DNA of 64,000 bases. Origin: Candidatus Poribacteria bacterium. Lineage in GTDB: Bacteria > Poribacteria > WGA-4E > WGA-3G. Below are positions 1,403 through 26,747 of this stretch, piece by piece. A program made the translations under genes and the position numbers. Each line of letters begins with the position of its first letter. Position 1 is the stretch's first letter. Below the pieces are notes generated by a model, which was given only the letters and a program-made list of their open reading frames with translations, was not told the origin of the DNA and searched no databases. Location of the stretch: contig OZ219753.1 in NCBI GenBank assembly GCA_964291315.2, positions 544,001-608,000 of the forward strand. The letters are read 5' to 3'.

Positions 1403-2926
1403 ATGGCATGTGTTGAGATAAAAAATCTCGGCTTCACATATCCGGGTCATCGAACACCCACACTGCACGGCATTACGACGCAGGTGCCTTACGGGGCTTT
1501 TGTACTGCTGACGGGCCCAACAGGATGTGGTAAATCCACGCTGCTACGGACACTGAACGGGCTAATTCCACACGCCTCTGCAGGTACGCTTGCGGGGACG
1601 GTGCTTCTCAACGGCAAGGACATCGCTACACAACCGCTTGTCGCTACATGTCGACAGATCGCACTTCTTTTTCAAAACCCTGATGATCAGCTTTTTTGCA
1701 CTTTAGTCGAAGATGAAATAGCCTTTGGGCTCGAAAATCTCAGTGTCCCCTCTGAAAAAATTAAGGAACGAATCGATTTTGCCCTAGAAAAGGTGGGACT
1801 CGCTGGGTTCGAGAACCAGCAAATATCATCGCTCTCTGGCGGTCAAAAACAACGGGTCGCTCTCGCCGCTGTCTGCGCAATGCAACCGCAAGTCTTGCTC
1901 CTTGATGAACCCACAAGCCACTTGGATCCACAAGGAACGCGGGACATCCTCGCTACCGTCGCGAAACTCAATAGGGAAATGGGGGTAACAGTCATATTGG
2001 CGACCCATCGAACCAGAAAGGTTGCTCCGATCTGCAGTCACATATGGCTGATGGACAATGGGCTCCTCTGCCTAGACCTAACGAAAGCGGAGGCTCTTCA
2101 AAATAAAGCTCCATATCGACGTTTAGGTGTGCAAGTTCCTTTTGAGGAGAAAACGCCATCTACAGCACCACTTTCCCCTCGCGCAACTCCTGCTATACCA
2201 AATTCAAGAGATCTTAGCCTAAGTATCCGTGATCTCTATTTTCGCTATCCAAATGCTGATAAGGACACCCTCCGAGCGGTCTCTTGCGAAACGCGTGGCG
2301 GAGAAGTGCTCGCTATCATGGGAGCAAACGGGTCTGGTAAAACAACCTTAATTCATCTCATTGCAGGTCTACTGCATCCATCAGCGGGGGAAATAACGAT
2401 TGCAGGAAACGGACACCATCGAGTGAAACTTCACCAATTAGCCGGTAAAGTCGGCATTGTCTTTCAAAATCCGGATCTACTACTACAGGCGAAAACTGTC
2501 CGGGACGAAGTGGAATTTGGCCCAAAAAACCTCAAACTGCCAACAGATACCCTTGAAAAACGAGTAAAAAAAACGCTTACACGGTTTGACTTAACTCATC
2601 TTTCATCAGAAGCGCCGTATGCATTATCACGAGGGCAGCGTCAACGTCTCGCTGTTGCAGCAAATTTTTCACTGCATCCCGATCTTTTCCTTCTTGATGA
2701 ACCAACCACCGGGCAAGATGCACAGCACCTCTCCCGATTAATGGATACGCTTTACGATGAAATACGCCGTGGGTGTAAAACTCTCATTTTTGCAACCCAT
2801 GATACCGATCTCACCTTGAAATACGCAGATCGTGTTCTCTTACTGCGCTACGGCCAGATAATTTTTGATGGCAGTCCTGAGATAGCGTTCAATAATTCCG
2901 AGCTTCTAGCTCAAGCATCCCTATAA
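1403..2926 (+). CDS. ECF-type transporter ATPase with two fused ABC domains
   Basis: Two Walker A motifs (GPTGCGKS, GANGSGKT), two FQNPD Q-loops, LSGGQ/LSRGQ signatures, two LDEPT Walker B motifs. Confidence 0.9.
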   Translation: MACVEIKNLGFTYPGHRTPTLHGITTQVPYGAFVLLTGPTGCGKSTLLRTLNGLIPHASAGTLAGTVLLNGKDIATQPLVATCRQIALLFQNPDDQLFCTLVEDEIAFGLENLSVPSEKIKERIDFALEKVGLAGFENQQISSLSGGQKQRVALAAVCAMQPQVLLLDEPTSHLDPQGTRDILATVAKLNREMGVTVILATHRTRKVAPICSHIWLMDNGLLCLDLTKAEALQNKAPYRRLGVQVPFEEKTPSTAPLSPRATPAIPNSRDLSLSIRDLYFRYPNADKDTLRAVSCETRGGEVLAIMGANGSGKTTLIHLIAGLLHPSAGEITIAGNGHHRVKLHQLAGKVGIVFQNPDLLLQAKTVRDEVEFGPKNLKLPTDTLEKRVKKTLTRFDLTHLSSEAPYALSRGQRQRLAVAANFSLHPDLFLLDEPTTGQDAQHLSRLMDTLYDEIRRGCKTLIFATHDTDLTLKYADRVLLLRYGQIIFDGSPEIAFNNSELLAQASL

Positions 2927-3063
2927 CAATTCCTTCCTATTTGCTAGTCAAGTTTGATCGTTTCAACCATCATCGATGTGTGTTAGCGGGGAGGTCTACC
3001 TGTCTATCGCATCTGTTATAATTTACCCTAAATGAAGGATCCTCAAATAGATCCATGAGAATA

Positions 3064-3092
3064 TTGACAACCTTTACCAGATATGTTATGCT
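3064..3092 (+). promoter_or_regulatory. sigma70-type promoter
   Basis: TTGACA-17 nt-TATGCT with TG extended -10, upstream of the 3248 ORF. Confidence 0.55.
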
Positions 3093-3247
3093 CTAGTTAG
3101 TTAAACGGTTACTCGGGAAGAACTTCAAGCTGCATGTATTGGCCACGCGCACGAATTCACACCGCTACAAGTGATCCTCTTTGGTTTCCATGCCTAAGCA
3201 CGTCCACCGAAGACTGATGATGTAGCCTCACTCATCGATTTGAATGA

Positions 3248-3970
3248 ATGTTTAAAAAACTTCTATCTGTCATTACCTTTTTATCTTTCTTTTTAAACAT
3301 GGACACGCTCCACGCTGCTCCACTAAAGACGCTTTCCTTAGATTTTACGCGAGAATTAACGGAAAATAAAAAGACGGAGTATATCACAGGTACACTTCAC
3401 TATGATGTCAAAAAATCACGCGTCGTCGTTGAAGTCAACCGCCCCATCAAGCAGCTAATGATTGTAAAAGGCAATGTGCTGGAAATTTACTATCCTGTCG
3501 AGAAACAGGCGTTCCGTTTCAACGCCGAGGGCCCGGTTCCACTACCATTTGTGGAATCCATTATCCAAGCTACACAAGCTGAGTACAGGTTGACAGAATT
3601 ATTGGGGTACACCCTCGACAAGCATGAAGTTGTGGACAGAGTGCTCTACACTTATTGGATCCCACCTGAAAAAAGAAAAAATAATCTGGGCACTGTTGTC
3701 CTCGGGATCCGTGACGATATGCTTATTTCTACTGAAATGAAAGACTCATATGGTCATGTCATAGCAAGAACACTCTATCAGGATCACAGCAAAATAGGCA
3801 TCAATTATATTCCGATGAAGGTTGTCGCTACTACATATGATGAGACCTCTCGCCTGCTTCAGCGTGAAAAAATTTTCTATAGCAACCCACACGTGAATGC
3901 AGAACATTCAACTGCCATCCTGAATGTCGCAATCCCAGAATCTGTCGAGGTTAAAGAGATCAAATGGTAA
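3248..3970 (+). CDS. secreted LolA/outer-membrane lipoprotein carrier-like protein
   Basis: Signal peptide (…TLHA), then LSLDFTRE…GTLHY…VVVEVNRPIKQLMIVKG…IYYP pattern resembling the LolA beta-sheet fold. Confidence 0.55.
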   Translation: MFKKLLSVITFLSFFLNMDTLHAAPLKTLSLDFTRELTENKKTEYITGTLHYDVKKSRVVVEVNRPIKQLMIVKGNVLEIYYPVEKQAFRFNAEGPVPLPFVESIIQATQAEYRLTELLGYTLDKHEVVDRVLYTYWIPPEKRKNNLGTVVLGIRDDMLISTEMKDSYGHVIARTLYQDHSKIGINYIPMKVVATTYDETSRLLQREKIFYSNPHVNAEHSTAILNVAIPESVEVKEIKW

Positions 3971-5521: not shown

Positions 5522-7036
5522 TTAATCGCTAAACAGATCATGTTTTAGAAAAATATCTCCATCAAAATCTGCGACCTGATGCTGCAGCTGACGTTTCGCC
5601 GCTAGTGTGCCAATAACTGGAACATCAAAAGAGATAGATTGTTGGATACCGCTGCGGTTGTACACCGCCCAACCTTTTTCAAACTCACGGACGAAGAGTC
5701 CCGGAGTTCCTTGATACTTAACGGCTTTCTTTGCTATCGGTCGACCGAGGTCTATATCCCAGAATTCGTACCAGTTGTGCAAATGGTCGGAGGTTGGTAT
5801 AACGTTGTCATCACTAAAAAGCACGTACCCATCAGAATGTGTTAAGCTGAGCGTGGTAAACGTCCGCATCCACTGTCGGTTCTCTTCGCTATTTCGCTCC
5901 GCAACCCGTGTATTGAGATCCCCCATATAATTTGTTACAACGCGCCAACCCTCTAGACAATTGATTCTCGGCTCTCTCAGGTGTTGTTCCGCCCATAGCA
6001 GTGTCCTTTCGATTCGTAGCATCTGTTCAAGGCTGTATCCGCTATCGTAGTCTGGTTTATAACACTCCATGAAAATACCGTTCACATGCTGCGCTGACTT
6101 CGGAATCTGACGCATATTCGCGTTGACGAGAATTAGAAAGTTCTCCGTCACTGCTGCCCGTATTTTGCGTAAAATCGCCAACCTGGCTTCTAACTCGACT
6201 TCCCGTGTGAGAATTGTATCAGACCAATCATCAACACGGATTGGACTAGTTGCATAGTCCTCGTTCCACCAATCAAGCATGATCCCGTCAAAAAGCCCAG
6301 ATTTGTCTAATGCTACTGCTTGCTTGACTATCAAATTCTGCACTTCTGGGTTTGTGAAGTTTATGAGGTAGTTGAGAACTGTGTCGTTCTCGTCGATTTT
6401 CCCATTCCCGTTTGTGTCTTCACCCCAACCGATGACAGGTTTACCGTGGCTATCTTTCAACCAATAAGGTGAATCCGGCGGATAAAACCCGACCTCCCAC
6501 CAGTTTCCCACACTCGTTTCACTTTGACGCGACAAATACCTTGCATCCCGGTACCGAATTTCGACGAGCAACAAAAGATTCGGATTTAAGGATAAGAGCT
6601 CGGATTTTCTATGATGCGCTGTATCTAACCGACTCGGCTGCAAATCTGACGCTAATCCTGAATAAGGCTGCTCCTCTGATATATTCCAAGGGATGCTTAA
6701 CAACGTGTACGGATCCGCAAAAACGAGATTGTGCCGAACCATTTTTTTGACCTCGCTTTCATCCGGTCTATTTTCTATACCGCTCCACGCCTGAAAGATT
6801 GAAGGATAATTTCGCTGCACGTTTTCAGCACCTGCCACTAGCTCTCCTAAAATGAGAAGAGCAATAAGATGAGATAAAGCTAGTAAAAAAACACGCTGAA
6901 TACCGATAGCCAGACTGAAATTTGAGTTGCAGGATCTCATAGAAGTTAAATTCTCAATCAGTTTTGAAAACGTCATAATTCTCTCGCTATCCGTTTCTTT
7001 TCTCACTGAATCACAGGCACCGGTTATTGATTCCAC
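5522..7036 (-). CDS. putative glycoside hydrolase-like (GHL15-type TIM barrel) secreted protein
   Basis: YPSIFQAW, FDGIMLDWW, NGIFME and REPRINCLEG motifs, with a DxNxNG calcium-loop insert; start uncertain. Confidence 0.55.
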   Translation of the reverse strand: MESITGACDSVRKETDSERIMTFSKLIENLTSMRSCNSNFSLAIGIQRVFLLALSHLIALLILGELVAGAENVQRNYPSIFQAWSGIENRPDESEVKKMVRHNLVFADPYTLLSIPWNISEEQPYSGLASDLQPSRLDTAHHRKSELLSLNPNLLLLVEIRYRDARYLSRQSETSVGNWWEVGFYPPDSPYWLKDSHGKPVIGWGEDTNGNGKIDENDTVLNYLINFTNPEVQNLIVKQAVALDKSGLFDGIMLDWWNEDYATSPIRVDDWSDTILTREVELEARLAILRKIRAAVTENFLILVNANMRQIPKSAQHVNGIFMECYKPDYDSGYSLEQMLRIERTLLWAEQHLREPRINCLEGWRVVTNYMGDLNTRVAERNSEENRQWMRTFTTLSLTHSDGYVLFSDDNVIPTSDHLHNWYEFWDIDLGRPIAKKAVKYQGTPGLFVREFEKGWAVYNRSGIQQSISFDVPVIGTLAAKRQLQHQVADFDGDIFLKHDLFSD

Positions 7037-9260
7037 CAGTACGTTAATTTCCCAACAACAGTCCAGCTGAGAAGTTCTAAACCATTGCTTCGGGTATCGT
7101 AGCTTTGATCGAAAACGAGATAGAAATCGCTGCCCGGACGGTAAATGTAATTGAGCAGGAAGCTCGTAGAGAGCACGTCTCTATTAGTACTCCACTGCGC
7201 GAATAATTTCGCGAAAAGTGTCGTGAAGAAAGAATAGCCGACACGCCCTCCCAAAGCATTCGCGTCGAATTCCTGATTCGGAAGCGTGATGCGATTAAAT
7301 TCGATGAAAGGTTCAAGACTCAACTGAGCTGTCGGTCTGGCGATGACATCTATTAAGAAACCGCGCCGCTGCCCGCTATAAAACTCACCAAACCCCACTT
7401 GCAACTGTCCAGTAATCATGCGACTGCTGCTAGTCTGACCCGATACCTGAAATGATGTGAAATTGTAGTCGTCAACAGGAATACTAACGCTTTGGATCCA
7501 AAAGTCCCGACCAAGATTTTCTGTCGTATTTTTGATCTCAAAACTGATGTTATCTCCTGTCTTAAACTCAAATTGCAGGTCGAAGGTTATCTCCTGCGTT
7601 TCCAGCTCGTTTTCCTGTGTCAGCACAAGGTCTATTTCTGGTCCGATTTGAATTTCGCGAATGCCAAACTTATCTGGCCACGGAGTGTAACCGGCACCGC
7701 CGCGCAAGCGGCGGACATCTTTACGTTCTACATAACCGACTTCAGGATTAAAGTCTTCACCGATGTCCGTGTATGAAGCATCGAGTCGGAACAGGTTTGT
7801 TCGCCAATCACCGCCGATAAAGAAGGCGTTATTATTGCCAAGAATATCTGCTTCAAAGGTCCGTGACCACAACCCTTGGATATTAATTTTGCGCGTCGGA
7901 CGGTATGAAAAGTCAACCCCCACCGTGCGATTGTAAACATCCACATCTTGTTTGTTGATAAGAATGCCGCCAACGGTCGATCCTGTGAGTATATCTCTAT
8001 TCACACGCATCACTGAATAATTTGTACGAGGTTCGTCAACGCGCGGCTCACCTATCTGAAATTCGTCATCCCTAATATTGTTCGTTAATACGTTCAGAAT
8101 CCCAATACCGTAGGAACCGACTTTACCCGTCATTTTCCCGCCTGCAATAATAGGAATCGCCATGCCTTTTGCAAGCCCAATCCTACGGCTATAAAAAAGA
8201 AGTAAGGGTGGTGGACTATCAAAATTCGGACGTGGAGCTCCAACATCGAAGATACTTGCACCTTCTAAGAAAAACGGACGCTGCTCCGGAAAAAACAGAC
8301 TGAACCGGGTAAGGTTTACCTGTTCTTGGTCCGCTTCTACCTGTGCAAAGTCCGTGTTAAACGTCAAATCAGCAGTTAAATTCGGGGTTACTCCATACTT
8401 GAGATCCAAGCCTGCCTCCAGTACACGCTCAACGCCCTCTGCCGACGAGCCGCTGCTTGCCCCCGGTAGGATATAAGGCAGCAGCTCCAGATGTCTTGAT
8501 GGTGAAATACCTTCTATCCCTTCAAGCGTACCGAAATAAGCAGTGCGATACTTTCCCAAGCCACCGTAAGTCTTCGGGGCTTCGTTCCACGCGGCAATTT
8601 CTTGTTTTCTCGCGATTTCACGTCCGAAATTTACGCCCCAGCTCATGACATCGCTTTTTTCAAAACGGAGTTGACTAAACGGAATAGCAATCTCGGCTGT
8701 CCAATACGCTTCATTCATCCTACAGCGGCACTCCCAAACGATATCCCAGCTTCCGTTGCGGCTGTCCCCACTCTTGGAGACCGCAGTGTCTTCTATCCGC
8801 CAACAGGAGTGAAGCGAAAGAAAACAGCATTTCGACGATCGTTATAAGTATCTAACAATAGAAAACCATAGTCATTAGAGCGCAAACCCGGAGAATCCCG
8901 ACGCATGTCATTCGCAACAATCTTGTCCATCTCTGAATCAAAAAAAGTGAATCCGAAATACAGTTTTTTGTCATCATAGAGAATACGGATTTCGGAAGAT
9001 TCTGTTGCAGGTTCGCCTTGATCAGGTTGGATTTGGTATAACTGACGAATCGGTTCTACGCTTTGCCAAACAGGCTCGTCAAGCACACCGTCAATCTCAA
9101 CCGCCTCAGATATCCGGTGTGCTGACATGCGTGGGAACGCACGTTCAGCTTCCACATCAACCTCCTGTAAAACGGATAAACCGCACATCCAGAGTAATGC
9201 AAAAAAAGCAAGATTCCGCACATACAACGAATGCTGAAAGTTAGTTGTGAAAAATCTCAT
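7024..9260 (-). pseudogene. CBM9-like/DUF5916 outer-membrane protein split by a frameshift near 8795 (or sequencing error)
   Basis: 5' part (signal peptide, IDGVLDEPVW, LDTYNDRRNA) stops at GGC GGA TAG; a shifted frame continues EDTAVSKSGDSRNGSWDIVWECRCR directly into the 7024..8718 ORF (NTDFAQVEAD…NLTRFSLFFPEQRPFF). Confidence 0.75.
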
Positions 9261-9565: not shown

Positions 9566-10900
9566 TTATTCAAGCGAGAGTTCTACCTCAATCTGTTTTC
9601 CATTTCGGAGAAGTCTTACGGGTAAAGTCTTTGCTTGTGGAACATCTTGTAGTACATAAGCGATAATCCCGCTCTCGGTTAACCGATCGGTGCGATCACC
9701 GTAACCAACCACAATATCGGCCCGACGGATGCCTGCCCTTTGGGCATTCGTCTCTCTACCTGAACGGCGCGACCGCCGGCCGACTGTCTCAACGCTCAGA
9801 GCCATTTCGGTCTCACCTAAACCTTTGCGTTGACGCTCGGCATCAGATAGGTCCTGAAGTACCATCCCGCCAAGCGCCACAAGCCGCAACTCACCAGTCG
9901 TTGTACGCCAAGAGATGTCACTTCCCCTCCGCCAACCCGAATGGAGAGTCAGACCCAGATTTATTTCTTCACCGTGACGATCGACTTTTGCTAGTACTGT
10001 CGTGTTTTCCGGGGCACGATGTAACACCCACTGCACATCCGCAACTGAAATAATCGGCTGCCCATCAAGCGTGAGAATTTCGTCTGCGCGACGAAATCCA
10101 TCTTTCTCCGCAGAAGATCCAGATACAACTTTGGTGATTTTCGCGCGATGCTTTGGTGAGAAATACAATCCTAAAACATCTGGCATCGGAAATGGATATA
10201 GCACTTCGTCTGGAACGGATTTCCTGTCATACCAGTGGATCTCCCGCTGCGCCTCTCCGATTTGATGGCAGTGGATGCACTGCCGGTCAATTTCACTGCT
10301 AAAGTCCAAAGTCGCGGAATAGCGCAGCAACGTCGGAAACGCCTCCGGCGTTTTCTTTGCCGGCTCAGGTCCAGTTTTTGCACCTAAAGATGCCTTGTTT
10401 TTCGGATATTCTTTGTGCAAGGCAAGAACGGCTTCAAGCGCCTGTTTGAAACCTTCAATCGAAATATCTTTCGCGGCGTTCTCATATTCAGCGCGCGTGC
10501 CAAAACGCCCATAGAGGGTCTTATCGGCATTCATGAAAAACACCGCGAAGGTGAGATCATAATCGAATTGGAACAGCGATAGATCCATACCGTTGCCTTG
10601 CACTATACGGACGCGCACAAACTGATCCATGAGCTCTTTTATCTGTTTATCGTGACGAACAACCTGTTCATCGAAGCCCTGGCACGACTCTCACGGCACT
10701 CACCGAAAAACGATGAGTAAAGGTTGACCTGTTTTTTCCGCTACACCAATCCCTTTAGCGAGGTCATTGTAGATCCAGTAGCCGGTCGCCGCAACTGATT
10801 CTATGTCTTCTGCAACCTCCCTGTCACCGTGTCCAAAACAGAAAAATACAGATAACAATAGGATACTAAGGATTATACCGGACATCTGATACTTCATCAA
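9566..10900 (-). CDS. thioredoxin-like (Trx7)/PDZ domain selenoprotein, ~444 aa, with two in-frame UGA (Sec) codons
   Basis: Track ORFs 10700..10900 and 9566..10630 are in frame and read LLIVFR-TGA-VP-TGA-ESCQGFDEQVVRHDKQIKELMDQF; the TGAs occupy the Cys positions of a thioredoxin CxxC; also CIHCH and two PDZ-like segments. Confidence 0.85.
10650..10687 (-). promoter_or_regulatory. candidate bacterial SECIS element
   Basis: Minus-strand GAUGAAC-AGGUU-GUUCGUC hairpin (10654-10672) with possible lower stem UCGUG/CACGA, immediately 3' of the two UGA codons. Confidence 0.6.
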
Positions 10901-11006
10901 AATATGCTCCTTTCATTTTTTTTTTTTTTGATTTTTTGGGCAATAACGATACGCCGGGTCAGACGTAGTGTAAACCCAACTCATTTTGAAAATTGTTCCG
11001 CGCAAA

Positions 11007-15936: not shown

Positions 15937-15963
15937 GCACAGATGGACAGTCTATGCTACAAG
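15937..15963 (+). repeat. REP-like palindromic element (GTAG family)
   Basis: gcacagatggacagtctatgctacaag matches the reverse complement of 26934-26960 at 24 of 27 positions. Confidence 0.6.
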
Positions 15964-16052
15964 TCCCTTGCAGATGCACCTTGCAGGTTATGGGACAAAA
16001 GAGTCTCCCTATATGTTTTTTCAAAGTCATGTTAGGCCTAAGGAGGCATAAA

Positions 16053-19000
16053 ATGCGAAGAACATTAGTGGTTCTCTCTGTGCTTGCCGCGTTTATGTTT
16101 GCGAGCGTCCCGTTCGCAGCGGCAGAATGGCAAGAGAACCTGGTAACCAATAACACGCTCAAAGCGCTCTATGTGATCAAGAGCACTTGGCGGGCAGCGG
16201 ATGATAACAAAGGTATCCCCGCAGGGTTCTTGACCCGCGGCTCATACCGCATCCTGCCCGGGAAGTCCAAGTTGTTCTATTCCTGGGACACCAACAGCAT
16301 CTATTTCCGTATTTCAAACGCAGAGCATGCGATAAAAGCGAACAGCGGCACGACGGCTTTTGCGTTCTGGGCTCATCCGAATCGCGCCTTCCGCGTTGTC
16401 TCACAGACGCTCGATACCTCTGTGACAACGGGTCAGCTGCTTTACTCTGATCGTTCGCCGGATCAGTTGGCTCAATTGGAGGGATTTGTCAGCTATACGG
16501 GTGGCTCCGAAGTGGTTGTCACTCCGGAGTGGGTGTTGCTAGATGGGCAGCCGACTGCTCCGCCAAATGACGAGCTCGGAGACGATGGCGGGTCGCCCGT
16601 TGAAGATGTTGCTCCGCCTGCGTGGGTAGAGAACATCGTAAGAAATGAGCGGGAAGAAGAGATATATGTTGTCTTTGCCACCTGGAAGGTTGAGAAGCCG
16701 AGGAAGGGGTGGCCTGAAGGGTTTCGGACGCGTGGCAGCTATCGTATCCCTCCGGGTAAAGGTAGAGTGTTTCATTCGTGGGAGGATAACGAGTCTTTTT
16801 TCCACATATCAAACGCGGATGGTGCGTTAAAACCGGAGAGCAGCAGTGGCACCTTCGAGTTCTGGGTTCATCCGAATAAGAAGTTTCGTATTGTGTCGGG
16901 TCAGTTCGAGAATGGTGTAACGCAGGAGGAGCTGCTGTATTCGGATCGTGCGAAGGAGGAGTTAGAGCACTCGGACGGCTTTATGTTATACGAGACCGGG
17001 GATAGTGGTGCTGAAGTGGTCGTTACTTCTGACTGGGTGTCGGTGTCTACTCTCCCACCTCCTCCGCCTCCTCCCGCTCCCGCCGTTCCTGAAGGTATGG
17101 TCTTGATCCCCGCTGGCACCTTCCAGATGGGTGCGCCCGGTACTTTTGAAAGCCCTGTTCATTCTGTTACTTTAGATGCGTTTTATATGGATACGCATGA
17201 AGTGACGAACACGGAATACGCTGCGTTCCTCAATGCAAAGGGCAAACATACCGATGGAAATAATACCTGGATCCGTCTTAGCGGTTCCAATAATAGTGTG
17301 AAGATTAGGTTATCCAATGGTAGATATACGCCGGTAGCGGCCTATGCAAATCATCCAGTTGCTCATGTGAGTTGGTATGGTGCGATGGCGTATGCGGAGT
17401 GGGCAGGTAAGCGGCTGCCGACGGGGGCAGAGTGGGAGTATGCTGCACGCGGCGGCTTAGTCGGTCAGACATACCCCTGGGGCAACGACGGCAATAATTC
17501 CCAGAATCGTGCCAACATGCGCTTCGGGTTTAAGTATGACTCCATGCCAGTCGGCAGTTATGCAGCCAACGGCTACGGATTGTATGATATGGCAGGGAAT
17601 CATCAGGAGCTGTGTTTAGACACCTACACCGCCTATTCGAGCGGGGCAAAGACGAACCCTGTGAGAGGTGCGACCAGTATCCAAGCACTATTGGCTAGCT
17701 ATAAAACGGCTAAAGGTGCTCGCGAGGTTCGTGGGGGGCACTGGGATTCCAGTCTTCCGGGCATTAAGGTTCATTATCGCCAGGGCATCAAGATCGGCGG
17801 TGATAACTCCGTCACCGGTTTCCGTTGTGTGAAGCCTGTATCTAGCCCCTCTACGAACAGTAACGATAACGATGCTGTCGAGACAACCCCGACACCTGTC
17901 GAGACAACCCCGACACCTGTTGTAACACCTGTCGAGACACCTGCAGGCATGGTCTTGATTCCCGCTGGCACCTTCCAGATGGGCGGGTCCGGTTTTGAAT
18001 CTCCCGTTCATTCTGTTACTTTAAATGCGTTTTATATGGATGCACATGAAGTGACAAACACGGAATACGCTGCGTTCCTCAATGCAAAGAGGAAACATGC
18101 CGATGCAGGGAAGACCTGGATCTATCTCAGTGGTAACAATAATAGGGTGAAGATTAGGTTATCAAGCGGTACGTATACAGTGAAAGCGGGTTATGGAAAT
18201 CACCCCGTTGCTCATGTGAGTTGGTATGGTGCGATGGCGTATGCGGAATGGGCAGGCAAGCGGCTGCCGACGGGGGCAGAGTGGGAGTATGCTGCACGCG
18301 GCGGCTTAGCCGGACAGACATACCCCTGGGGCAACGACGGAAATAGTCTCGGGAATCGTGCCAACATGCGCTTCGGGTTTAAGTGGGATTCCATGCCAGT
18401 CGGCAGTTATACGGGCAACGGCTACGGGTTGTATGATATGGCAGGGAATCATCAGGAGTTGTGTTTAGACACCTACACCGCCTATTCAAGTGGTGCCAAG
18501 ACGAATCCCCTGAGGGATGCTAACAGTAGTATCCAAGCGCTATTGGCTAACTATTTAGCGGCTACAGGTACCCGTGAGGTTCGTGGGGGTCACTATGATT
18601 CCAGTGGTGGAGACATTGCGGTTTATGCTCGCCGGGGCATCATGATCGGAGGTTCTAACTCCGTGACCGGTTTCCGTTGTGTTATACCTATCGCCCCTGC
18701 TAACAATAACAACAATGATGGGGAGTCCCAGGCCCAGGCACCTGTTCAGACACCTGTCAAGGTGCCTGTCAAGAAAACCCCGACACCTGTTGTAACACCT
18801 GTTGTGACACCCACGCTACCGCCGGGCATGGCGCTGATCCCCGCTGGCACGTTTAAGATGGGCAGCACCACGGGCGATGCGGATGAACGCCCTGTTCACA
18901 CTGTCACTTTAGATGCGTTTTATATGGATACACATGAAGTGACGAACACACAGTTCGCGGCATTCCTTACTGCAAAGGGCAAACACATCGACGCAGGGAA

Positions 19001-19565
19001 GACCTGGCTCGATATGTCAGATCCCGCCATAGGCATTGGGCTGGTAGCAGGGCAGGAAACCCCAACCTATCAAGCCAAGTCCGGTCATGGGAACCGGCCT
19101 GTCATTAGAGTCACTTGGCATGGTGCGAGAGCGTATGCGAAGTGGGCAGGCAAAGAGCTCCCCACGGAAGCACAATGGGAGTATGCTGCGCGCGGTGGGT
19201 TAGTTGGGAAACTATACCCCGGCGGCGACACCATAGACGCTACGAAGGCAAACTATGGTCAGAACGTAGGTAGCACGACGGACGTTGGCAGTTATGCGGC
19301 GAATGGTTATGGTCTCTATGACATGGCTGGGAATGTCTGGGAGTGGTGTCTGGATACGTATGACGATGTGTTCTATCAGAGTTCTCCTACCGCGAACCCG
19401 ATGTCAGGCGATCCAGACACAATGATGGATGATGTCCGTGTCCTGCGCGGCGGCTCGTATCTCTATTCAGCCCAGACGACTCGTGTCGCAAATCGCGACC
19501 GTGGCGCACCGGTGAGTACGGGCAGAGACCTCGGTTTCCGTTGTGTGAAGCCTGTATCTCCGTAA
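16053..19565 (+). CDS. secreted protein with two N-terminal repeat domains and three non-catalytic FGE-sulfatase (SUMF1/C-lectin fold) domains
   Basis: AGGAGG RBS at 16041, signal peptide; three GMxLIPAGTF…LPTxAxWEYAARGG…NGYGLYDMAGN…RGG…GFRCV units separated by Pro/Thr linkers; no FGE catalytic cysteine pair after RGG. Confidence 0.85.
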   Translation: MRRTLVVLSVLAAFMFASVPFAAAEWQENLVTNNTLKALYVIKSTWRAADDNKGIPAGFLTRGSYRILPGKSKLFYSWDTNSIYFRISNAEHAIKANSGTTAFAFWAHPNRAFRVVSQTLDTSVTTGQLLYSDRSPDQLAQLEGFVSYTGGSEVVVTPEWVLLDGQPTAPPNDELGDDGGSPVEDVAPPAWVENIVRNEREEEIYVVFATWKVEKPRKGWPEGFRTRGSYRIPPGKGRVFHSWEDNESFFHISNADGALKPESSSGTFEFWVHPNKKFRIVSGQFENGVTQEELLYSDRAKEELEHSDGFMLYETGDSGAEVVVTSDWVSVSTLPPPPPPPAPAVPEGMVLIPAGTFQMGAPGTFESPVHSVTLDAFYMDTHEVTNTEYAAFLNAKGKHTDGNNTWIRLSGSNNSVKIRLSNGRYTPVAAYANHPVAHVSWYGAMAYAEWAGKRLPTGAEWEYAARGGLVGQTYPWGNDGNNSQNRANMRFGFKYDSMPVGSYAANGYGLYDMAGNHQELCLDTYTAYSSGAKTNPVRGATSIQALLASYKTAKGAREVRGGHWDSSLPGIKVHYRQGIKIGGDNSVTGFRCVKPVSSPSTNSNDNDAVETTPTPVETTPTPVVTPVETPAGMVLIPAGTFQMGGSGFESPVHSVTLNAFYMDAHEVTNTEYAAFLNAKRKHADAGKTWIYLSGNNNRVKIRLSSGTYTVKAGYGNHPVAHVSWYGAMAYAEWAGKRLPTGAEWEYAARGGLAGQTYPWGNDGNSLGNRANMRFGFKWDSMPVGSYTGNGYGLYDMAGNHQELCLDTYTAYSSGAKTNPLRDANSSIQALLANYLAATGTREVRGGHYDSSGGDIAVYARRGIMIGGSNSVTGFRCVIPIAPANNNNNDGESQAQAPVQTPVKVPVKKTPTPVVTPVVTPTLPPGMALIPAGTFKMGSTTGDADERPVHTVTLDAFYMDTHEVTNTQFAAFLTAKGKHIDAGKTWLDMSDPAIGIGLVAGQETPTYQAKSGHGNRPVIRVTWHGARAYAKWAGKELPTEAQWEYAARGGLVGKLYPGGDTIDATKANYGQNVGSTTDVGSYAANGYGLYDMAGNVWEWCLDTYDDVFYQSSPTANPMSGDPDTMMDDVRVLRGGSYLYSAQTTRVANRDRGAPVSTGRDLGFRCVKPVSP

Positions 19566-20018: not shown

Positions 20019-23000
20019 GTGCAGATACATCCTTTGTTAAAATTCGTAGACCCGCCCATCTTAAAAGAGCAAACGCTACTGTTAAAAATTGGAATCATCT
20101 TTACCCTGGTAATTTGCGCAACTTTTGACGTTGCAGTGAACCGGATCACTGCAGAAGAGACTGCCCTAACAGAAGAAACACAAACAGAGACTACAAAATC
20201 AAGCGAACACACCGCTATCCCTGCTGATTCCGATAAACCCGAGACATCTGAGGAAAATCAGCGTTCTATCCCACCCGGACTGTCTAATCTCAATCCATTT
20301 AACGGTTGGAGCAAGTCAAAACACTTCATCTGGCAAAGCGGTAGCCAGCAGGCAGCAGGCAGCAATCAGCAAGAGGGGTGGGGCATAGATACACCACAAG
20401 AACAGACCGCACGCTCTACTGAAGACCAACAGCCGATAAATGATAGCGATCGACTCATACAACCCTATTTGGACAGCCTCCGACGATGGCGAAACCCGCT
20501 ATACCTAACCGACTTCAGCGAACTCTACAATTGGAAACCCAAGCCTAAGCAAGCAGAGGAGGGCATCGCTCTCCCAATGGATTCTAACCTCAAGATCACT
20601 GGCGTACAATCCGTAACCATAGAAGCAAACAAAACTCACTACTTCGGTGAGGGAGACCTGAACCGCTACGGGTATGGCGGCGGATACGGAAGCTACTCAT
20701 CCGGACTTGATCTAGGACTCACATCCTCCTACGGTTATGAGGACTTCGGATACAGCAGCAGCGGATTTGGCGGTGGATATGGATCAGGTGTTGGAAGCAG
20801 CTATGGCAGCTATGGCAGTGGATACAGCTCAGGATTTGGCGGCGGCTACGGCACCAGTGGCACGCCCCGAGCAACAGGCTTTAACCTGCGACAGATACAG
20901 CAATTCGGACTGCACGGACGCGTCGGGCAACGAACTCATATCTCCGTAGATTATAGCGCAGGCGGAAGCAGCTTTGGCAGCGGCGGATATGGCGGCGGAT
21001 ACGGCTTAGGTGGAACAAAAGAGCAGAAAATTAAAATCTGGTATGAAGGCACACCCGAAAGCATCATAAAAACTGTCTCATTTGGGGACATCACCCTCAG
21101 CCTGCCGAACACCCGTTTTTTGAACGTCAACCGGAATTTATTCGGGCTTGAGGGGGTTTTTGAATGGAAAAATACACGACTTACAGCTTTCGGTTCTCGC
21201 AGTAAGGGTATACGAGAGGTCCGAACCTTCCGCGGACAATCGCAACGAGCAGGCGGCAGATACGGATACGGACCACGCGGCATCCAGATCCAAGATACCA
21301 ACTATGTAAAGAGCAGATTCTATCACATACACAAAGATGAAGATGGCGAACTACATGAAGCATACCTCCCTATAAAAGCAGGAAGCGAAGAAATCTATAT
21401 CGACGACGGTGTCGTCGGAAACAACCAAGGCGGGAAACGGACAAGCCGGGGCTATTTCAACCCGCAGTTCCCCGGACAAGACTACAATATAGACCACGAA
21501 ACGGGCGAAATAGAATTTCTTACACCCATCTCGGCAAGCTACACTATTGTCGTAGCATACGAATACAACGGGAGCGGTGGCGGCAAAGTCGGCAACCCCG
21601 GCAACGTCTTCATCGACGAAAACGAAGACGGCACCATTGATGAACAAGGAGAAGAAATCGGTTACGTAGTCCTAAAAGAAAAAGGGTTTCGAGGGACTGA
21701 AGCGACACACGTTTATTGGCTCGGCAACCGAAATATTAATCCGCGCGACTTTACCCTCACAATCGTACGCCAAGGACAAGATGAGACATCCCCAACCAGC
21801 AGCGGCGCAGCACCCTACATCGAGATATTCGGCCTCGACCGAAACGGAGACGGGAATGTCGATGCCCAATTTATAGACTACGACAGAGGTTTCCTCCGAT
21901 TCCCAACAACCTACGGCATACATCCTTTTCAAATCACAGATCCAAACCACCCCTTTTATGCCTACCGGGAGGCAGTTAATAACAACGCCCTCTATCTTGA
22001 AGGCAGCCGAGCAGATGCGCAAATCTATACCATCATTGCAGACTACGCGTATCAATCAGAAACCTACAATGTAGGGATATTCGTCATACCAGAAAGTGAA
22101 ACTGTCCGCCTCAATGGACAAACCCTGATACGCGACACCGACTACATGATGGTTTATGAGGTTGGTACCCTCCGCTTCTTCAGACAGCTCGACGAGTTTG
22201 ACGAGATCGTCGTCGAATTTGAAAAGACACCCTTCGGAGGCTCAGCGCAACAGGCTATAGCCGGGGTTTGGCTAGAATACACACACAAACCGAAACCTAA
22301 ATCGGAAAGAGAACAGAGTCTCGAAGATAGGTTTAACCGACTAGGCGGCAGCCAAATCATGGACCACAGCCTCGGAGCGAGAACACAAGATGCTTTCGGA
22401 GAAGCCTTTTCAGGTAACAGAATCGGAACTTTGGGAGGGAGCAGCCTCGGCGGAGGTTTCGGACAGAGCGGCTTCGGCAGTGGATATAGCAGCTTCGGCG
22501 GCATTGGCGGCAGATCCCGAAACTACTACGGCAGCTACGGCGGGCAGATGGACCATTTCAACCCTGTTTTCAAAAAAGGATTCACACTATCAACAGGTTA
22601 TATTCTCAACACCGGGCAAAAACCCGCAGAAATACCGGATGCAAACGAGGTACCAAACCGGTTGCAAGCCTTCAATCTAAACACAAGCTTCGGCAGAGAA
22701 TTCAATATCGCCGGCGTTTTTAACCTGCTCCCTTTTGTTAAAATGCGGAACTTTCCGCTTTCACTCAATTTCAGCGGTGAAACAGCCTATTCACACAATA
22801 ATCCTAATAGTATTGGTGTCGCACTCATTGATAGTATGGAGGGCGCTAAGGAAACAACAACCATAACCACACTCAAATACAACTGGAAACACAGCAGCCT
22901 ACCTTACATCGCCCAAAATCAAACTAACTCCACAGAGCCGTCAACTTACCAGGTTATACCAACTAATGAGAACAGAGCCGTTTTTAGGATTGCCCTGAAA

Positions 23001-26000
23001 AATAAGAATGAAGCCGAAGCTGTCGGAAACTATATGCGAAACCGAGACGTACCTGCCTCTTCAATCCAACCGCTCTCTCTCTCTACCGAAGAACGTCTCA
23101 TCATGGAACTAGGCTACAGTTTCACAGACATCGCCGCAGAATGGGGCGGCTTTTCAAACGGGATCTCAGCATCAGGCGTAGACTACTCAGAACGCAGTTC
23201 CGTTGAGATGTGGCTACGCGTCCAAGGAGACGATAACATCACACTCCACTTGAACCTCGGCGCAGTGAATGAAGATACCGACCAAGACAAGCGATTGGAC
23301 AGCGAAGACCTACCCGATACACTGATGGACACAAACGGTGATGGAAGTGTCGATGCACTAGATTTAAACCTCGAAAACCTTTCAGATGCCGACCGTTATC
23401 GCGGGAACGGCACCTTGGATACAAGCGAAGACATCGGATGGAATTACAACGGACCCCTTGGCGAAATACCCATCGGCACAAATAACCAGGTATTGGACAG
23501 CGAAGACCTCAACGGGGACGGCGTACTCGACAACGTAGATGCATACTTCGAAATCTCAATGCCACTCAATGAAATTCCGAAAGAGTGGATCAAAAGTAAA
23601 AACGCGAATGACTGGATCTTTCTTAGTATTCCACTCTCACAATTTAGACCTGTCGGCTCGCGGTTGCCGAGTCTTGTGTTTGTGCAACACTTCCGATTCT
23701 GGCTGAGCAAAAATGCACCAGGAAGAGTGCAAGGCACTCTGCAGTGGGCTTCTATCGAAATTGTCGGAAACAAGTGGCAACAAGGAATAATAACCCGATC
23801 CAGCTCGCAAATCAACCCCGAGGTCGACCCCACTCTTAGCGACACCGCCCTTACACCCTCAACCGAAACGTTGTCAACAAGCACAATTGTCGAGAATACA
23901 CTCGAAAAGTTCATCGTCGGTACAAAAGATAACTTCAGCTATGACGACTATCAGAGCGCCTATCTTGACATCGAAGATAACGAACTCTTTAAAAAACTGC
24001 ACCCGTTCACAGCGACATCCCTTGGTTTCCAAACACAACAGCAACGGGAACAGACACTCAGCCTCGAATATTACCTTTTCCCAGAATCTTACGGAGTCAC
24101 CTCCAAACAATTGAAAGGTCTAACCCAAAGTGAAGGGCAAGACTTCAGCAAACATGATACCCTCCGTTTTTGGCTCTATGGTGATAATAGCGATACCACC
24201 TTCGTCTTGCAGCTTGCACCAACCGTCCCGACTAGCTATCGAAGCGCTTTTTATAGCTCAGACCCATTTATCGATCAGACACAAGAAGACGAAGTGAATG
24301 TTTTCGAAAACCTAACTGACTACTATGAATATACAGTGCCAATCGATTTCGACGGCTGGAAATTGATCGAAATCGATCTGCGCGACTTGCATAGAAACGC
24401 CTATCCAGATATCGCAGCAGGCAGCAACCATCAACAACCTGCCGGGAGTAGCGGAGAACAGCAACCACTGAACGTAACTGAAAACCAACAACCAACAACT
24501 GAATCACAAACTGCACTAGATGCACCAGACGGGCAGCCTGACGGTTTCACAATCCGCGGTAACAACAGCACAAGACTCTCCATTAAAAATATTGGCGGCA
24601 TCCTATTGGGCATCCGCAACAACACCAACCGTGAAATTAGCGGCGAAATCTGGGTCAACGAGATACACCTCGGCGACCCACTCGTCCGAGCCGGATGGGC
24701 GCGCCGCAGCAACATGTCAGTCGGACTCAGTAATATCATTAAGCTGAGGGGCGGATACGCCAGCCAAGACAAAGACTTCGAAAGCAGCGCAGGACAAGTC
24801 GGTAGACAACGACTCTCCTCGCGCGGATACAGTACCACGAATAACGACTTCAACATCGACGCCGATGTTACGCTCTTCCCATGGCTACCCATCCGATACG
24901 GCATCCGACAACAAGACACCGAAACTGAAAGCCAACGAGGTAGTTATAGCAGCTTCCAGAGCGGGAAAAGCGAAATACAGACACGAGATTTTTCTATCCA
25001 ACTTAACAGAAACCCCTTCCCCAACCTCGGATTTGCCTATAATTACCAAGACTTTTGGAACGAACAGCAGGGAACACAAATCAGCTATCTCTATACAGGA
25101 ACCTTCCGTTACGACCTCGGCTCAAAACTCGGGGTTAACGCACAATATCGACACGAGGATATACTCGCTAAACCCGAAACCGCAACACAGACATCAACAA
25201 CTTCAACCTCCTATTCCTATTATAGCTACGGTTACGGCAGAAATCGCGACGAAAAAACCGACAGCGCTACAATAGCACTAAATATCAGCCCCACAAACAT
25301 CTTCAGCCTAAACCCAACTTACGACATCAGCCGGACCCTTGAAAGACGAGAAGACCGCAATTACACTAGCAATATAGAAACAGAACCTGAAACGCCCGAA
25401 ACTCAAAAAGAGGAAACGAATAACTTTTCAATCACGCAACGCGAACATCGCTTAGCACTTACACCCCGACTCAATCGCGATTTGCTCGGCATGCGCCCTA
25501 CTGTCACTAGCCGAATGAGCTTTCGCGAAAATTGGTTCAGCCAGGAAAAAAGCGCTTCACTCAACGGAAACGTCAGTATTGGAATGAACCTACGCATCGA
25601 AAAATGGTTTGGATGGCTTCTCAGAAACGGAACAAACGAAATAAACGAAACACCGGAAAACAGCCCACAATCTGCAACCAGCCACCAACAGCCACCAGAG
25701 GACGCTGGAGCTAAAAGCACCACATCTGCCACAGATGAGATGCCGACACTCCACAACGAACAATCAACAACGCTCAGGGAACACCTACGAGAAAGCGGGA
25801 TCGATGAAACACAAATCCAAGAACTCGAAGAAAACCTCGGCGATTGGATCGAACGCGACAAGAATGAGGCACCCCCCGCAGAGGCAATCTCAAACCGAGT
25901 ATCAGAAACAACAGATGGGATGCTGAACCGAATCCTAAAAAGTTTCACCGTAAGCACAAACGCCAACTTTACCGCATCCGAATCTTATCGGCAACTCGCG

Positions 26001-26747
26001 GGTAACCAGTCAATCATAGAAATCTATTCGCTCGCTGAGGATGCTAAAGAACGCACAAACTCGCAGCGGAGTAACCGTTACACAATGCGAACCTCGGTAG
26101 AACCGTGGAAATGGGTATCCCTCGGTGCAAACGTCAACACCACTGATAGCTTCCGAAAAAGCACTGGAACCATTTATACATCGCATGCCGAATCATACGA
26201 AGGCAACCTAAAACTAAGCGCCCAAGAAACTACTAGTTTTCAAATACGTTACAGCTTCACAAAGCGAGATAATACAACACAGAAAGCGACTCTCAGCGAC
26301 AGCACCGCCCACACACCATCGCTCAGCTGGATACATACTTGGGGAAAAGAGACACGGACAGCACTCGGGATACGAACTACCTTCCAAGATCAACAGCGAA
26401 GTGGCATTCAAAGCAACGCTTTCATTGTCACCCCAAACCTGAGCGTTGACTACCGTTACCACACAGAAAATGGCATACGCCTCCCCTTTATCGGTAGAAT
26501 TCCACTCAAACACGACCTAGAATTAACCAACACGCTCTCCTGGGCCATTCGGAGGGAGCAATTCGGCGCAAATCGCGAAGAACGCTCAGAACGATATGAA
26601 ACAACCCTACGAGTCGGATACAAAATTAGTACACATATCACCGCAAACTTCCACCTCGGTGTCAGCTACAATAACGATAGGGTCGAAGAAGGTAGAGACT
26701 TCCTCTCAATCGCAAGTGCATTGACGATCCGCGGGGAAATTCAATGA
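20019..26747 (+). CDS. sprA: SprA/Sov-like type IX secretion outer-membrane translocon homolog
   Basis: 2242 aa; colinear SprA-like blocks KIWYEG…IIKTVSFGDITLSL…LFG, IPESETVRLNG…DY…G, LNLGAVNED, SEDLNGDGVLD…YFE, EIWVNE…GWA; amphipathic beta-strand C-terminal third. Confidence 0.7.
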   Translation: MQIHPLLKFVDPPILKEQTLLLKIGIIFTLVICATFDVAVNRITAEETALTEETQTETTKSSEHTAIPADSDKPETSEENQRSIPPGLSNLNPFNGWSKSKHFIWQSGSQQAAGSNQQEGWGIDTPQEQTARSTEDQQPINDSDRLIQPYLDSLRRWRNPLYLTDFSELYNWKPKPKQAEEGIALPMDSNLKITGVQSVTIEANKTHYFGEGDLNRYGYGGGYGSYSSGLDLGLTSSYGYEDFGYSSSGFGGGYGSGVGSSYGSYGSGYSSGFGGGYGTSGTPRATGFNLRQIQQFGLHGRVGQRTHISVDYSAGGSSFGSGGYGGGYGLGGTKEQKIKIWYEGTPESIIKTVSFGDITLSLPNTRFLNVNRNLFGLEGVFEWKNTRLTAFGSRSKGIREVRTFRGQSQRAGGRYGYGPRGIQIQDTNYVKSRFYHIHKDEDGELHEAYLPIKAGSEEIYIDDGVVGNNQGGKRTSRGYFNPQFPGQDYNIDHETGEIEFLTPISASYTIVVAYEYNGSGGGKVGNPGNVFIDENEDGTIDEQGEEIGYVVLKEKGFRGTEATHVYWLGNRNINPRDFTLTIVRQGQDETSPTSSGAAPYIEIFGLDRNGDGNVDAQFIDYDRGFLRFPTTYGIHPFQITDPNHPFYAYREAVNNNALYLEGSRADAQIYTIIADYAYQSETYNVGIFVIPESETVRLNGQTLIRDTDYMMVYEVGTLRFFRQLDEFDEIVVEFEKTPFGGSAQQAIAGVWLEYTHKPKPKSEREQSLEDRFNRLGGSQIMDHSLGARTQDAFGEAFSGNRIGTLGGSSLGGGFGQSGFGSGYSSFGGIGGRSRNYYGSYGGQMDHFNPVFKKGFTLSTGYILNTGQKPAEIPDANEVPNRLQAFNLNTSFGREFNIAGVFNLLPFVKMRNFPLSLNFSGETAYSHNNPNSIGVALIDSMEGAKETTTITTLKYNWKHSSLPYIAQNQTNSTEPSTYQVIPTNENRAVFRIALKNKNEAEAVGNYMRNRDVPASSIQPLSLSTEERLIMELGYSFTDIAAEWGGFSNGISASGVDYSERSSVEMWLRVQGDDNITLHLNLGAVNEDTDQDKRLDSEDLPDTLMDTNGDGSVDALDLNLENLSDADRYRGNGTLDTSEDIGWNYNGPLGEIPIGTNNQVLDSEDLNGDGVLDNVDAYFEISMPLNEIPKEWIKSKNANDWIFLSIPLSQFRPVGSRLPSLVFVQHFRFWLSKNAPGRVQGTLQWASIEIVGNKWQQGIITRSSSQINPEVDPTLSDTALTPSTETLSTSTIVENTLEKFIVGTKDNFSYDDYQSAYLDIEDNELFKKLHPFTATSLGFQTQQQREQTLSLEYYLFPESYGVTSKQLKGLTQSEGQDFSKHDTLRFWLYGDNSDTTFVLQLAPTVPTSYRSAFYSSDPFIDQTQEDEVNVFENLTDYYEYTVPIDFDGWKLIEIDLRDLHRNAYPDIAAGSNHQQPAGSSGEQQPLNVTENQQPTTESQTALDAPDGQPDGFTIRGNNSTRLSIKNIGGILLGIRNNTNREISGEIWVNEIHLGDPLVRAGWARRSNMSVGLSNIIKLRGGYASQDKDFESSAGQVGRQRLSSRGYSTTNNDFNIDADVTLFPWLPIRYGIRQQDTETESQRGSYSSFQSGKSEIQTRDFSIQLNRNPFPNLGFAYNYQDFWNEQQGTQISYLYTGTFRYDLGSKLGVNAQYRHEDILAKPETATQTSTTSTSYSYYSYGYGRNRDEKTDSATIALNISPTNIFSLNPTYDISRTLERREDRNYTSNIETEPETPETQKEETNNFSITQREHRLALTPRLNRDLLGMRPTVTSRMSFRENWFSQEKSASLNGNVSIGMNLRIEKWFGWLLRNGTNEINETPENSPQSATSHQQPPEDAGAKSTTSATDEMPTLHNEQSTTLREHLRESGIDETQIQELEENLGDWIERDKNEAPPAEAISNRVSETTDGMLNRILKSFTVSTNANFTASESYRQLAGNQSIIEIYSLAEDAKERTNSQRSNRYTMRTSVEPWKWVSLGANVNTTDSFRKSTGTIYTSHAESYEGNLKLSAQETTSFQIRYSFTKRDNTTQKATLSDSTAHTPSLSWIHTWGKETRTALGIRTTFQDQQRSGIQSNAFIVTPNLSVDYRYHTENGIRLPFIGRIPLKHDLELTNTLSWAIRREQFGANREERSERYETTLRVGYKISTHITANFHLGVSYNNDRVEEGRDFLSIASALTIRGEIQ

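Follow-up and report, generated by a model that had tools for sequence, protein, structure and literature searches.

The genome of a Candidatus Poribacteria bacterium (assembly GCA_964291315.2, contig OZ219753.1) carries, on the minus strand of the stretch analysed here, two TGA codons that interrupt a long reading frame within a few codons of each other. The stretch, hereafter the window, comprises 64,000 nucleotides (nt; positions 544,001 to 608,000 of the contig), and all coordinates below refer to it. The question raised by this locus is whether the two codons terminate translation or encode selenocysteine (Sec, U) in the active site of a redox protein. The answer we favor, at a probability of roughly 78%, is that of an intact gene for an exported selenoprotein of the NCBIfam family NF041199, in which a thioredoxin-like domain (Thioredoxin_7, Trx7) precedes two tandem PDZ domains, and which would represent a two-selenocysteine form with both UGAs read as Sec by means of one selenocysteine insertion sequence (SECIS). 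The family as such is known, with one Sec (CxxU); what is new is the two-Sec UxxUxxC variant.

Two UGA codons inside one conserved frame

The minus-strand string TTT CGG TGA GTG CCG TGA GAG TCG TGC can be read directly in the window, and its two TGAs join, as the original prediction had stated, two table-11 open reading frames (ORFs) of the same frame, one of 66 amino acids (10700..10900) and one of 354 amino acids (9566..10630). Translated with TGA as U, the frame stays open over 444 codons and ends at the TAA at 9568-9566 with no further stop on the way, which confirms that the two ORFs belong to a single gene of 443 amino acids (Table 1). The frame and the stop first assigned to it stand; its upper boundary had been set at 10900, thereby including an in-frame TTG (10900-10898), and the start is likely to be the ATG at 10897-10895 instead, with GGAG at 10910-10907 upstream of it. 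A run of 14 A residues on the strand of the gene (10916-10929) lies immediately 5' of this ribosome-binding site. The hydrophobic N-terminus of the read-through translation has the appearance of a signal peptide, indicating a product that is probably exported, with a cleavage site placed by eye. TGA is the normal stop of 10 of the 40 large ORFs in the window, including that of ArgJ, which matches its own NCBIfam profile end to end; the codon has therefore not been reassigned genome-wide.

Judged by the curated equivalog hidden Markov model, the read-through product is a member of NF041199, ‘Trx7/PDZ domain-containing (seleno)protein’, passing the cut-off of 300 bits with a score of 389.1 (residues 41-442 against profile positions 1-389 of 390). 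The assignment to this family, with its FRCxPC-type motif, had been proposed from the sequence at the outset and is borne out by both the profile and the homologs: full-length homologs (45-49% identity, one of them named Planctomycetes) carry FRC[IV]PCxxC with an invariant third Cys where the window has FR-U-VP-U-ES-C. Both TGAs thus occupy, in the homolog alignment, the invariant Cys columns 1 and 2 of a CxxCxxC triad, and all three Cys are present in each of the 34 motif-retaining sequences found among 150 library representatives, most of which start just past the motif.

To these we can add a comparison of related genomic loci (the best 80 of 548 confirmed), in which the motif takes the form UxxU 24 times, CxxU 12 times and CxxC 43 times, one locus being without the region. 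The UxxU loci are 22 members of a Poribacteria clade together with one locus each from Planctomycetota (L037) and Verrucomicrobiales (L071). Those with CxxU are labelled Verrucomicrobiota with one exception (L027, CAZZAQ010000157.1), titled ‘uncultured Bifidobacterium sp.’, whose gene groups with Verrucomicrobiota in the tree described below and whose taxonomic label or binning is probably wrong. CxxC is found in loci titled Planctomycetota or its subgroups (42/43), the remaining one (L078) being titled only ‘bacterium’. Codon by codon, position 67 is TGA in 24 of the 80 loci and Cys (TGC or TGT) in 55, the region being missing in one, and position 70 is TGA in 36 (the 24 UxxU and 12 CxxU loci). 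Relatives therefore show at both positions either Cys or a conserved TGA, and neither the non-Cys residues nor the unconserved TGAs that would have spoken against the original prediction. As the same two TGAs recur in 24 of 80 loci on invariant Cys columns, the coincidence lies far beyond chance.

The sequence around these codons points in the same direction. Flanking codons vary synonymously (CGG/CGC/CGT, GTG/GTA/GTC, TCC/TCT/AGC, TGC/TGT), no stop interrupts the 66 codons upstream in any of the 22 loci of the Poribacteria clade, and over these 66 codons the clade differs from the window by 323 synonymous and 243 nonsynonymous changes, a pattern suggestive of purifying selection and unlike what a real stop codon would give. 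Among the same 22 loci, the Met start, the hydrophobic core and a CFG[HD]GD block are kept in 21, with L at the start in the other (L026). UxxUxxC hence appears to be fixed across the clade.

None of this is visible in current annotation. Among the close database relatives, every one of 100 matches at ≥67% identity covers ≤84% of the query and is without the N-terminal thioredoxin active site, so that gene callers do miss this protein, as anticipated. The names ‘peptidase’, ‘serine protease Do’ and ‘MucD’ given to relatives stem from the PDZ domains only. The orthologs of a whole phylum are in this way stored as N-terminally short ‘peptidase’ or ‘serine protease Do’ fragments devoid of an active site, and the same is probably true of most of the diversity of NF041199. 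Such uniformly split annotation is also what speaks for real stops, i.e., for a decayed or split gene that yields a 66-amino acid peptide and a PDZ protein from an internal ATG (10630), or else for assembly errors, and two further observations go along with it: a frameshift is probable at least once in the window, in the gene that follows downstream, and one relative (L019) has lost its N-terminal part. Against real stops stand the presence of the same two TGAs in 24 independent assemblies, their position on invariant Cys columns, the upstream codons kept open under apparent purifying selection, an AlphaFold2 model that needs the N-terminal segment to complete its thioredoxin fold and, as set out next, a position-locked, covarying hairpin that accompanies the TGAs and is absent from the Cys forms. 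We consider stops or assembly errors exceedingly improbable, and already contradicted by the comparative data; the earlier argument against decay, made from the position of the TGAs, is strengthened by their conservation, by the open upstream codons and by the hairpin.

One hairpin, probably serving two codons

Downstream of the TGAs, relatives share a 19-nt hairpin, GAYGAACA-GGU-UGUUCGUC, at a fixed register, with GGU (or A-GGU-U) as loop; in the window it reads GAUGAACA-GGU-UGUUCGUC, and its apical loop begins 26 nt after the second UGA and 35 nt after the first. All eight base pairs (bp) can form in all but one of the 25 UxxU genes (the window and 24 loci; the exception has seven) and in nine of the 12 CxxU genes (seven in the other three), whereas the 43 CxxC genes allow 0-6 pairs, with a mean of 2.9. 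Of 280 cells in the 37 TGA-bearing genes, 98.6% are paired, compared with 16-59% when the 3' partners are slid. Compensatory double changes occur in two of the eight pairs (10 cells), and the observed covariation score was reached by none of 500 shuffles. Pairing is kept even where the encoded residues change, e.g., GAGCA/UGCUC in L037 (EQVAR), GCGCA/UGCGC in L071 (AQVAR) and GGGCA/UGUCC in several Verrucomicrobiota.

The bacterial SECIS consensus, as given in section 5 of PMC13188914, consists of a 3-9 nt loop with G in its first two positions, a stem of 4-16 bp and a spacing of 16-37 nt, and the hairpin of the window agrees with it in loop, stem length and spacing. Since the distances of 26 and 35 nt both lie inside this published range, one element can serve both codons, and since the hairpin is common to the CxxU and UxxU forms, a single SECIS most likely serves both UGAs. 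We postulate that SelB with its Sec-tRNA(Sec) would bind this hairpin and decode the two UGAs one after the other as the ribosome passes.

How the two-Sec form arose can be approached through a quick maximum-likelihood tree of 78 rows, from which two short loci (L025, L026) and the one without the motif (L019) were omitted. The Poribacteria UxxU genes form one clade (Shimodaira-Hasegawa-like approximate likelihood ratio test, 100), L037 and L071 form a pair (95), and both fall, together with all 12 CxxU and six CxxC genes, in one mixed half of the midpoint-rooted tree, the other 37 CxxC genes making up the opposite half. A single UxxU clade is not rejected by the approximately unbiased test (p = 0.774), and independent UxxU origins can therefore not be claimed. 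Because the SECIS is shared by CxxU and UxxU genes, the CxxU form (Sec70) would have come first, followed by a single TGY-to-TGA change at codon 67 that made use of the existing SECIS.

Active site, architecture and candidate chemistry

The two Sec residues would not be equivalent. Gap-free alignments place the CPHS of AGR2 and the CTDC of the Xylella protein 3fk8 onto U70-E-S-C73 (E ~0.02), with agreeing flanks (KP...VF upstream and C-x-x-[LF]-D downstream). In the AlphaFold2 models strand beta-1 ends at R66, U67 follows directly after the strand, and helix alpha-1 starts at residue 71 (domain model) or 74 (full-length model), which would put Sec70 at the helix N-cap and Cys73 in its first turn, the classical thioredoxin geometry. 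By alignment and model, the canonical pair is thus predicted to be U70/C73, and U67 a family-specific extra residue three positions upstream. The claim that both stops fall exactly on redox Cys positions accordingly stands for the second UGA, at the canonical Cys, and is to be modified for U67, which lies outside the pair. That the single-Sec members carry the middle Sec would be explained by U70/C73 being the canonical pair. The eukaryotic protein SelL, described by Shchedrina in 2007, reportedly forms a diselenide from two Sec at the canonical CxxC positions; a SelL-like arrangement, with UxxU on both of these, was considered for the present protein and rejected on the strength of the same alignments and models. 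The diselenide suggested in the original prediction, which would link U67 and U70, is possible, though not as the canonical pair.

The full-length AlphaFold2 model, built from a 100-row alignment, has a mean predicted local distance difference test (pLDDT) score of 94.9 and a predicted template modelling score of 0.91, and its best Foldseek matches in the PDB are the PDZ1-PDZ2 tandems of DegP, DegQ and RseP; the N-terminal 206 residues modelled alone reach a pLDDT of 87.2. By sequence and model, the two PDZ domains form a DegP/RseP-like tandem. The whole is reminiscent of periplasmic proteins of the HtrA type, with a thioredoxin-like domain in place of the protease. Identity as an HtrA/DegP serine protease was likewise considered and rejected, as the PDZ parts alone match, there is no trypsin-like domain, and the DegP-type NCBIfam models score ≤49 bits against cut-offs of more than 400. 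For the N-terminal domain the nearest solved folds are DsbH, AGR2/AGR3, ERp19, the Xylella ‘disulphide isomerase’ 3fk8, DsbD-gamma and CcmG, all of them thiol:disulfide oxidoreductase folds (target-normalised template modelling score ~0.6). The linker between the two halves carries a second conserved motif, CIHCH, of which C208, C211 and H212 are ≥90% conserved over 100 rows and C211 opens a helix in the AlphaFold2 model. In form it could be either a heme-c site of the CxxCH kind or another CxxC site for redox chemistry or metal binding, and it is matched by no family model.

The likely chemistry would be periplasmic thiol/selenol-disulfide exchange. Sec70 and Cys73, at the N-terminus of helix alpha-1, would act as nucleophile and resolving residue, with Sec67 as an additional chalcogen three residues upstream; Sec70 would attack an oxidised substrate and be resolved either by Cys73, as a selenenylsulfide, or by Sec67, as a diselenide, the triad thereby working as a relay or switch, and the role of the DegP-like PDZ tandem would be to bring in protein substrates. 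In its most specific form, which we offer tentatively and hold to be possible rather than probable, a three-chalcogen Sec-x-x-Sec-x-x-Cys centre built with one SECIS would alternate between a selenenylsulfide (Sec70-Cys73) and a diselenide (Sec67-Sec70), so as to provide a very low-potential, oxidation-resistant periplasmic relay coupled to substrate capture by the PDZ domains. This centre may also exchange electrons with the conserved CIHCH site.

A three-Cys CxxCxxC accompanied by a second invariant CxxCH is unusual for a plain thioredoxin, and the triad, possibly together with C208-x-x-C211-H212, could mainly be a metal, metalloid or cofactor site (Fe-S, Zn, Cu, Hg, or heme via CxxCH) with Sec as ligands. 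UxxU is listed for the putative metal-binding protein NF041115 in a table of PMC13188914, and paired Sec as metal ligands are discussed in the preprint 10.1101/2022.07.06.499078. The nearest solved folds listed above, thiol:disulfide oxidoreductases without exception, speak against such a site, as do the location of U70 and C73 at canonical CxxC positions and the lack of any cytochrome or Fe-S family match in Pfam or NCBIfam. For heme in particular, the CxxCH of a cytochrome c is usually not found at the start of a helix, and C211 begins a helix in the model rather than ending one. We regard a mainly metal- or cofactor-binding role as unlikely.

Several observations weigh against the two-Sec redox protein that we favor. 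The isolated stem of the window, at -6.9 kcal/mol, is slightly weaker than a criterion of -7.5 (stems of relatives range from -8.7 to -12.4, and the 63-nt region from the first UGA reaches -16.6), and the 101-nt region folds no better than shuffles (z = 0.75), the hairpin having emerged through comparative analysis only and not through folding of that region. One Poribacteria chromosome (L019) is without residues 1-124, including the whole thioredoxin active-site region, the domain there being apparently dispensable or decayed. Weak alignments underlie the choice of U70/C73 as the canonical pair, and selenium insertion at UGA 67 and 70 is something we infer from sequence. The neighbouring genes (chorismate-lyase-like and CBM9/DUF5916) hold no functional hint, synteny extending only among close Poribacteria. 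Finally, the 64-kb window contains none of selA, selB, selC and selD: ARAGORN found no tRNA or tRNA-Sec in it, and NCBIfam models found no SelA, SelB or SelD among 39 large ORFs. Rfam had no match in the window at its gathering threshold, and around the motif only a chance small RNA at E ≤10 (E 2.1); we know of no general bacterial SECIS model in Rfam. As for a second selenoprotein gene, none of 93 TGA-joined ORF pairs in the window was convincing by eye, a scan that did not include family-model tests.

In L019 itself (2297-3954), a complete chromosome, the chorismate-lyase-like gene upstream runs to about 2899 and the DKTIYGRFGTR block is where the homologous frame opens, the Sec/thioredoxin active-site region having been deleted in its entirety.

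The machinery for Sec is on record for other Poribacteria, which lends the reading indirect support. One metagenome-assembled genome (MAG) of this phylum is listed with SelA, SelB, SelD, tRNA-Sec and a UXXU hydrogenase in Suppl. Table 1 of PMC13582414, Ca. Poribacteria WGA-3G with two SelA and one SelB in supplementary file 2 of PMC5649159, and according to the latter source most bins of sponge symbionts contain SelA and SelB together. The same sources bear on whether one or both UGAs could be decoded as Cys, by a SelC-like tRNA(ReC) that uses SelB and the SECIS, to give a mature CxxUxxC or CxxCxxC protein. tRNA(ReC)-like genes occur, in PMC13582414, in ~56% of the genomes with UXXU hydrogenases as against ~2.3% of other Sec-type genomes, and it is suggested there that they may help decode UXXU motifs; the content of the window fits insertion of Sec or Cys alike. 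Nevertheless, there are no tRNA genes in the window, the Poribacteria MAG in Suppl. Table 1 has two SelC(-like) genes that are both typed tRNA-Sec, and it is hard to explain why a costly UGA and SECIS would be maintained over 22 species-level genomes merely for Cys when one base change to TGY suffices. Decoding as Cys therefore strikes us as improbable, and we retain Sec at both codons.

If so, the protein matters in several respects. Proteins with two close selenocysteines are rare and test how SelB and SECIS decode consecutive UGA codons. The family provides a natural series, in which CxxC lacks the hairpin while CxxU and UxxU share it, and the question of one SECIS for two UGAs is therefore open to reporter constructs. 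In this family the usual thioredoxin pair comes with a third, conserved residue, either Cys or Sec. Sponge symbionts are reportedly enriched in SelA and SelB, and this and the gene together suggest that Poribacteria have a periplasmic redox chemistry dependent on selenium.

Table 1 Features of the Trx7/PDZ gene, in coordinates of the window
Feature	Position	Strand	Remarks
Full Trx7/PDZ selenoprotein gene (proposed)	9566..10897	-	ATG 10897-10895 (likely start) to TAA 9568-9566; 443 codons including two UGA
Ribosome-binding site GGAG	10907..10910	-	9 nt before ATG; read from sequence
Signal peptide MKYQMSGIILSILLLSVFFCFGHG (predicted)	10826..10897	-	hydrophobic N-terminus in read-through translation
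First UGA, codon 67	10700..10702	-	proposed Sec at first Cys of CxxCxxC triad
Second UGA, codon 70	10691..10693	-	proposed Sec at canonical thioredoxin nucleophile position
TGC, Cys73	10682..10684	-	third triad residue, invariant column; canonical resolving Cys position (predicted)
SECIS hairpin GAUGAACA-GGU-UGUUCGUC (candidate)	10654..10672	-	8-bp stem, GGU apical loop
Thioredoxin_7 domain	10526..10777	-	PF13899, residues 42-125, E 2e-14; fold reaches ~residue 175
C208-I-H-C211-H212 motif	10265..10279	-	linker between thioredoxin and PDZ parts; invariant in 18-row alignment
PDZ domain 1	9947..10174	-	residues 243-318; PDZ_2 E 3.6e-12, PDZ_6, PDZ; DegP PDZ1 E 1.5e-14
PDZ-like domain 2	9575..9898	-	~residues 335-442; DegS and DegP matches at query 346-441

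Neighbouring genes and comparison with known systems

Directly upstream and on the same strand lies a 201-amino acid Rv2949c-like gene of the chorismate pyruvate-lyase family (PF01947; 11007-11612), which keeps this position in 14 Poribacteria loci, L019 included. The downstream neighbour, a CBM9/DUF5916 gene (7024-9260, minus strand), consists in the window of two ORFs (8793-9260 and 7024-8718) that are out of frame with each other, and its relatives have a single open frame (697 codons in L002, 752 in L007). Near the break, at 8793-8800, the window is apparently one base short in a G run (GGCGGATAG vs GGTGGGATGG); either a pseudogene with a frameshift or a homopolymer error of the assembly is indicated. 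Farther away, a 1203-amino acid protein (15954-19565, plus strand) with a C-terminal FGE-sulfatase/EgtB-like part scores below cut-off for both GldK (344 bits, cut-off 350) and the selenoneine synthase SenA (248, cut-off 420), and is followed by a SprA-like protein of 2242 amino acids (20019-26747); together the two suggest surface machinery related to the type IX secretion system. Four DNA-methyltransferase-like genes within the 64 kb (31857-32987, 44126-45421, 47614-50709 and 62065-63051) fit the richness in restriction-modification reported for sponge symbionts. An ORF that adjoins a methyltransferase gene (46199-47233, minus strand) was considered as SelD and rejected, at 94.9 bits against a SelD cut-off of 125; it belongs to the AIR-synthase family (PF00586/PF02769), with HypE, SelD and ThiL as best NCBIfam neighbours, all below cut-off.

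It was the Global Ocean Sampling survey of 2008 that first reported the family, as ‘Putative secreted serine protease MucD’, with a CxxU motif, two sequences containing Sec and 12 homologs with Cys (PMC2398784), and the tables of the 2022 and 2026 reviews (PMC9312934, PMC13188914) list it as CxxU with one Sec. UxxU appears in these tables only for other families, namely a prokaryotic Prx-like thiol:disulfide oxidoreductase (UxxC/UxxU), an FmdB-family protein and NF041115. We found no description of a two-Sec Trx7/PDZ form in the literature, a search that did not cover the text of the NCBIfam model itself. The gene described here shares with the CxxU members of NF041199 from Verrucomicrobiota the architecture, the Sec at the middle position, and the position and sequence of the SECIS, and differs from the published form in having a second Sec in place of the upstream Cys, i.e., UxxUxxC.

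A close parallel in decoding is offered by the UXXU-type Group 4 [NiFeSe] hydrogenases (PMC13582414), in which two UGAs likewise stand three codons apart and one downstream SECIS is proposed for both; there too the CXXU and UXXU forms share the SECIS architecture, and one member comes from a Poribacteria MAG. The families are nonetheless unrelated: Sec coordinates Ni there, in an enzyme of the cytoplasm or membrane, and is here part of a predicted exported thioredoxin fold. In fold, the N-terminal domain comes nearest to DsbD-gamma, DsbH and the AGR2/ERp18 type, the CxxC/S of which is in register with U70/C73, but these have a two-residue site with no third Cys or Sec upstream, no fusion to a PDZ tandem and no CIHCH motif. 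SelL differs in that its two Sec make up the canonical pair, whereas here the pair is predicted to be U70/C73, U67 lies outside it and Cys73 is retained as a third chalcogen. With HtrA, DegP, DegQ and RseP, finally, the C-terminal half agrees in both the sequence and the fold of PDZ1-PDZ2, the protease domain being absent and a Trx7 domain standing at the N-terminal position instead.

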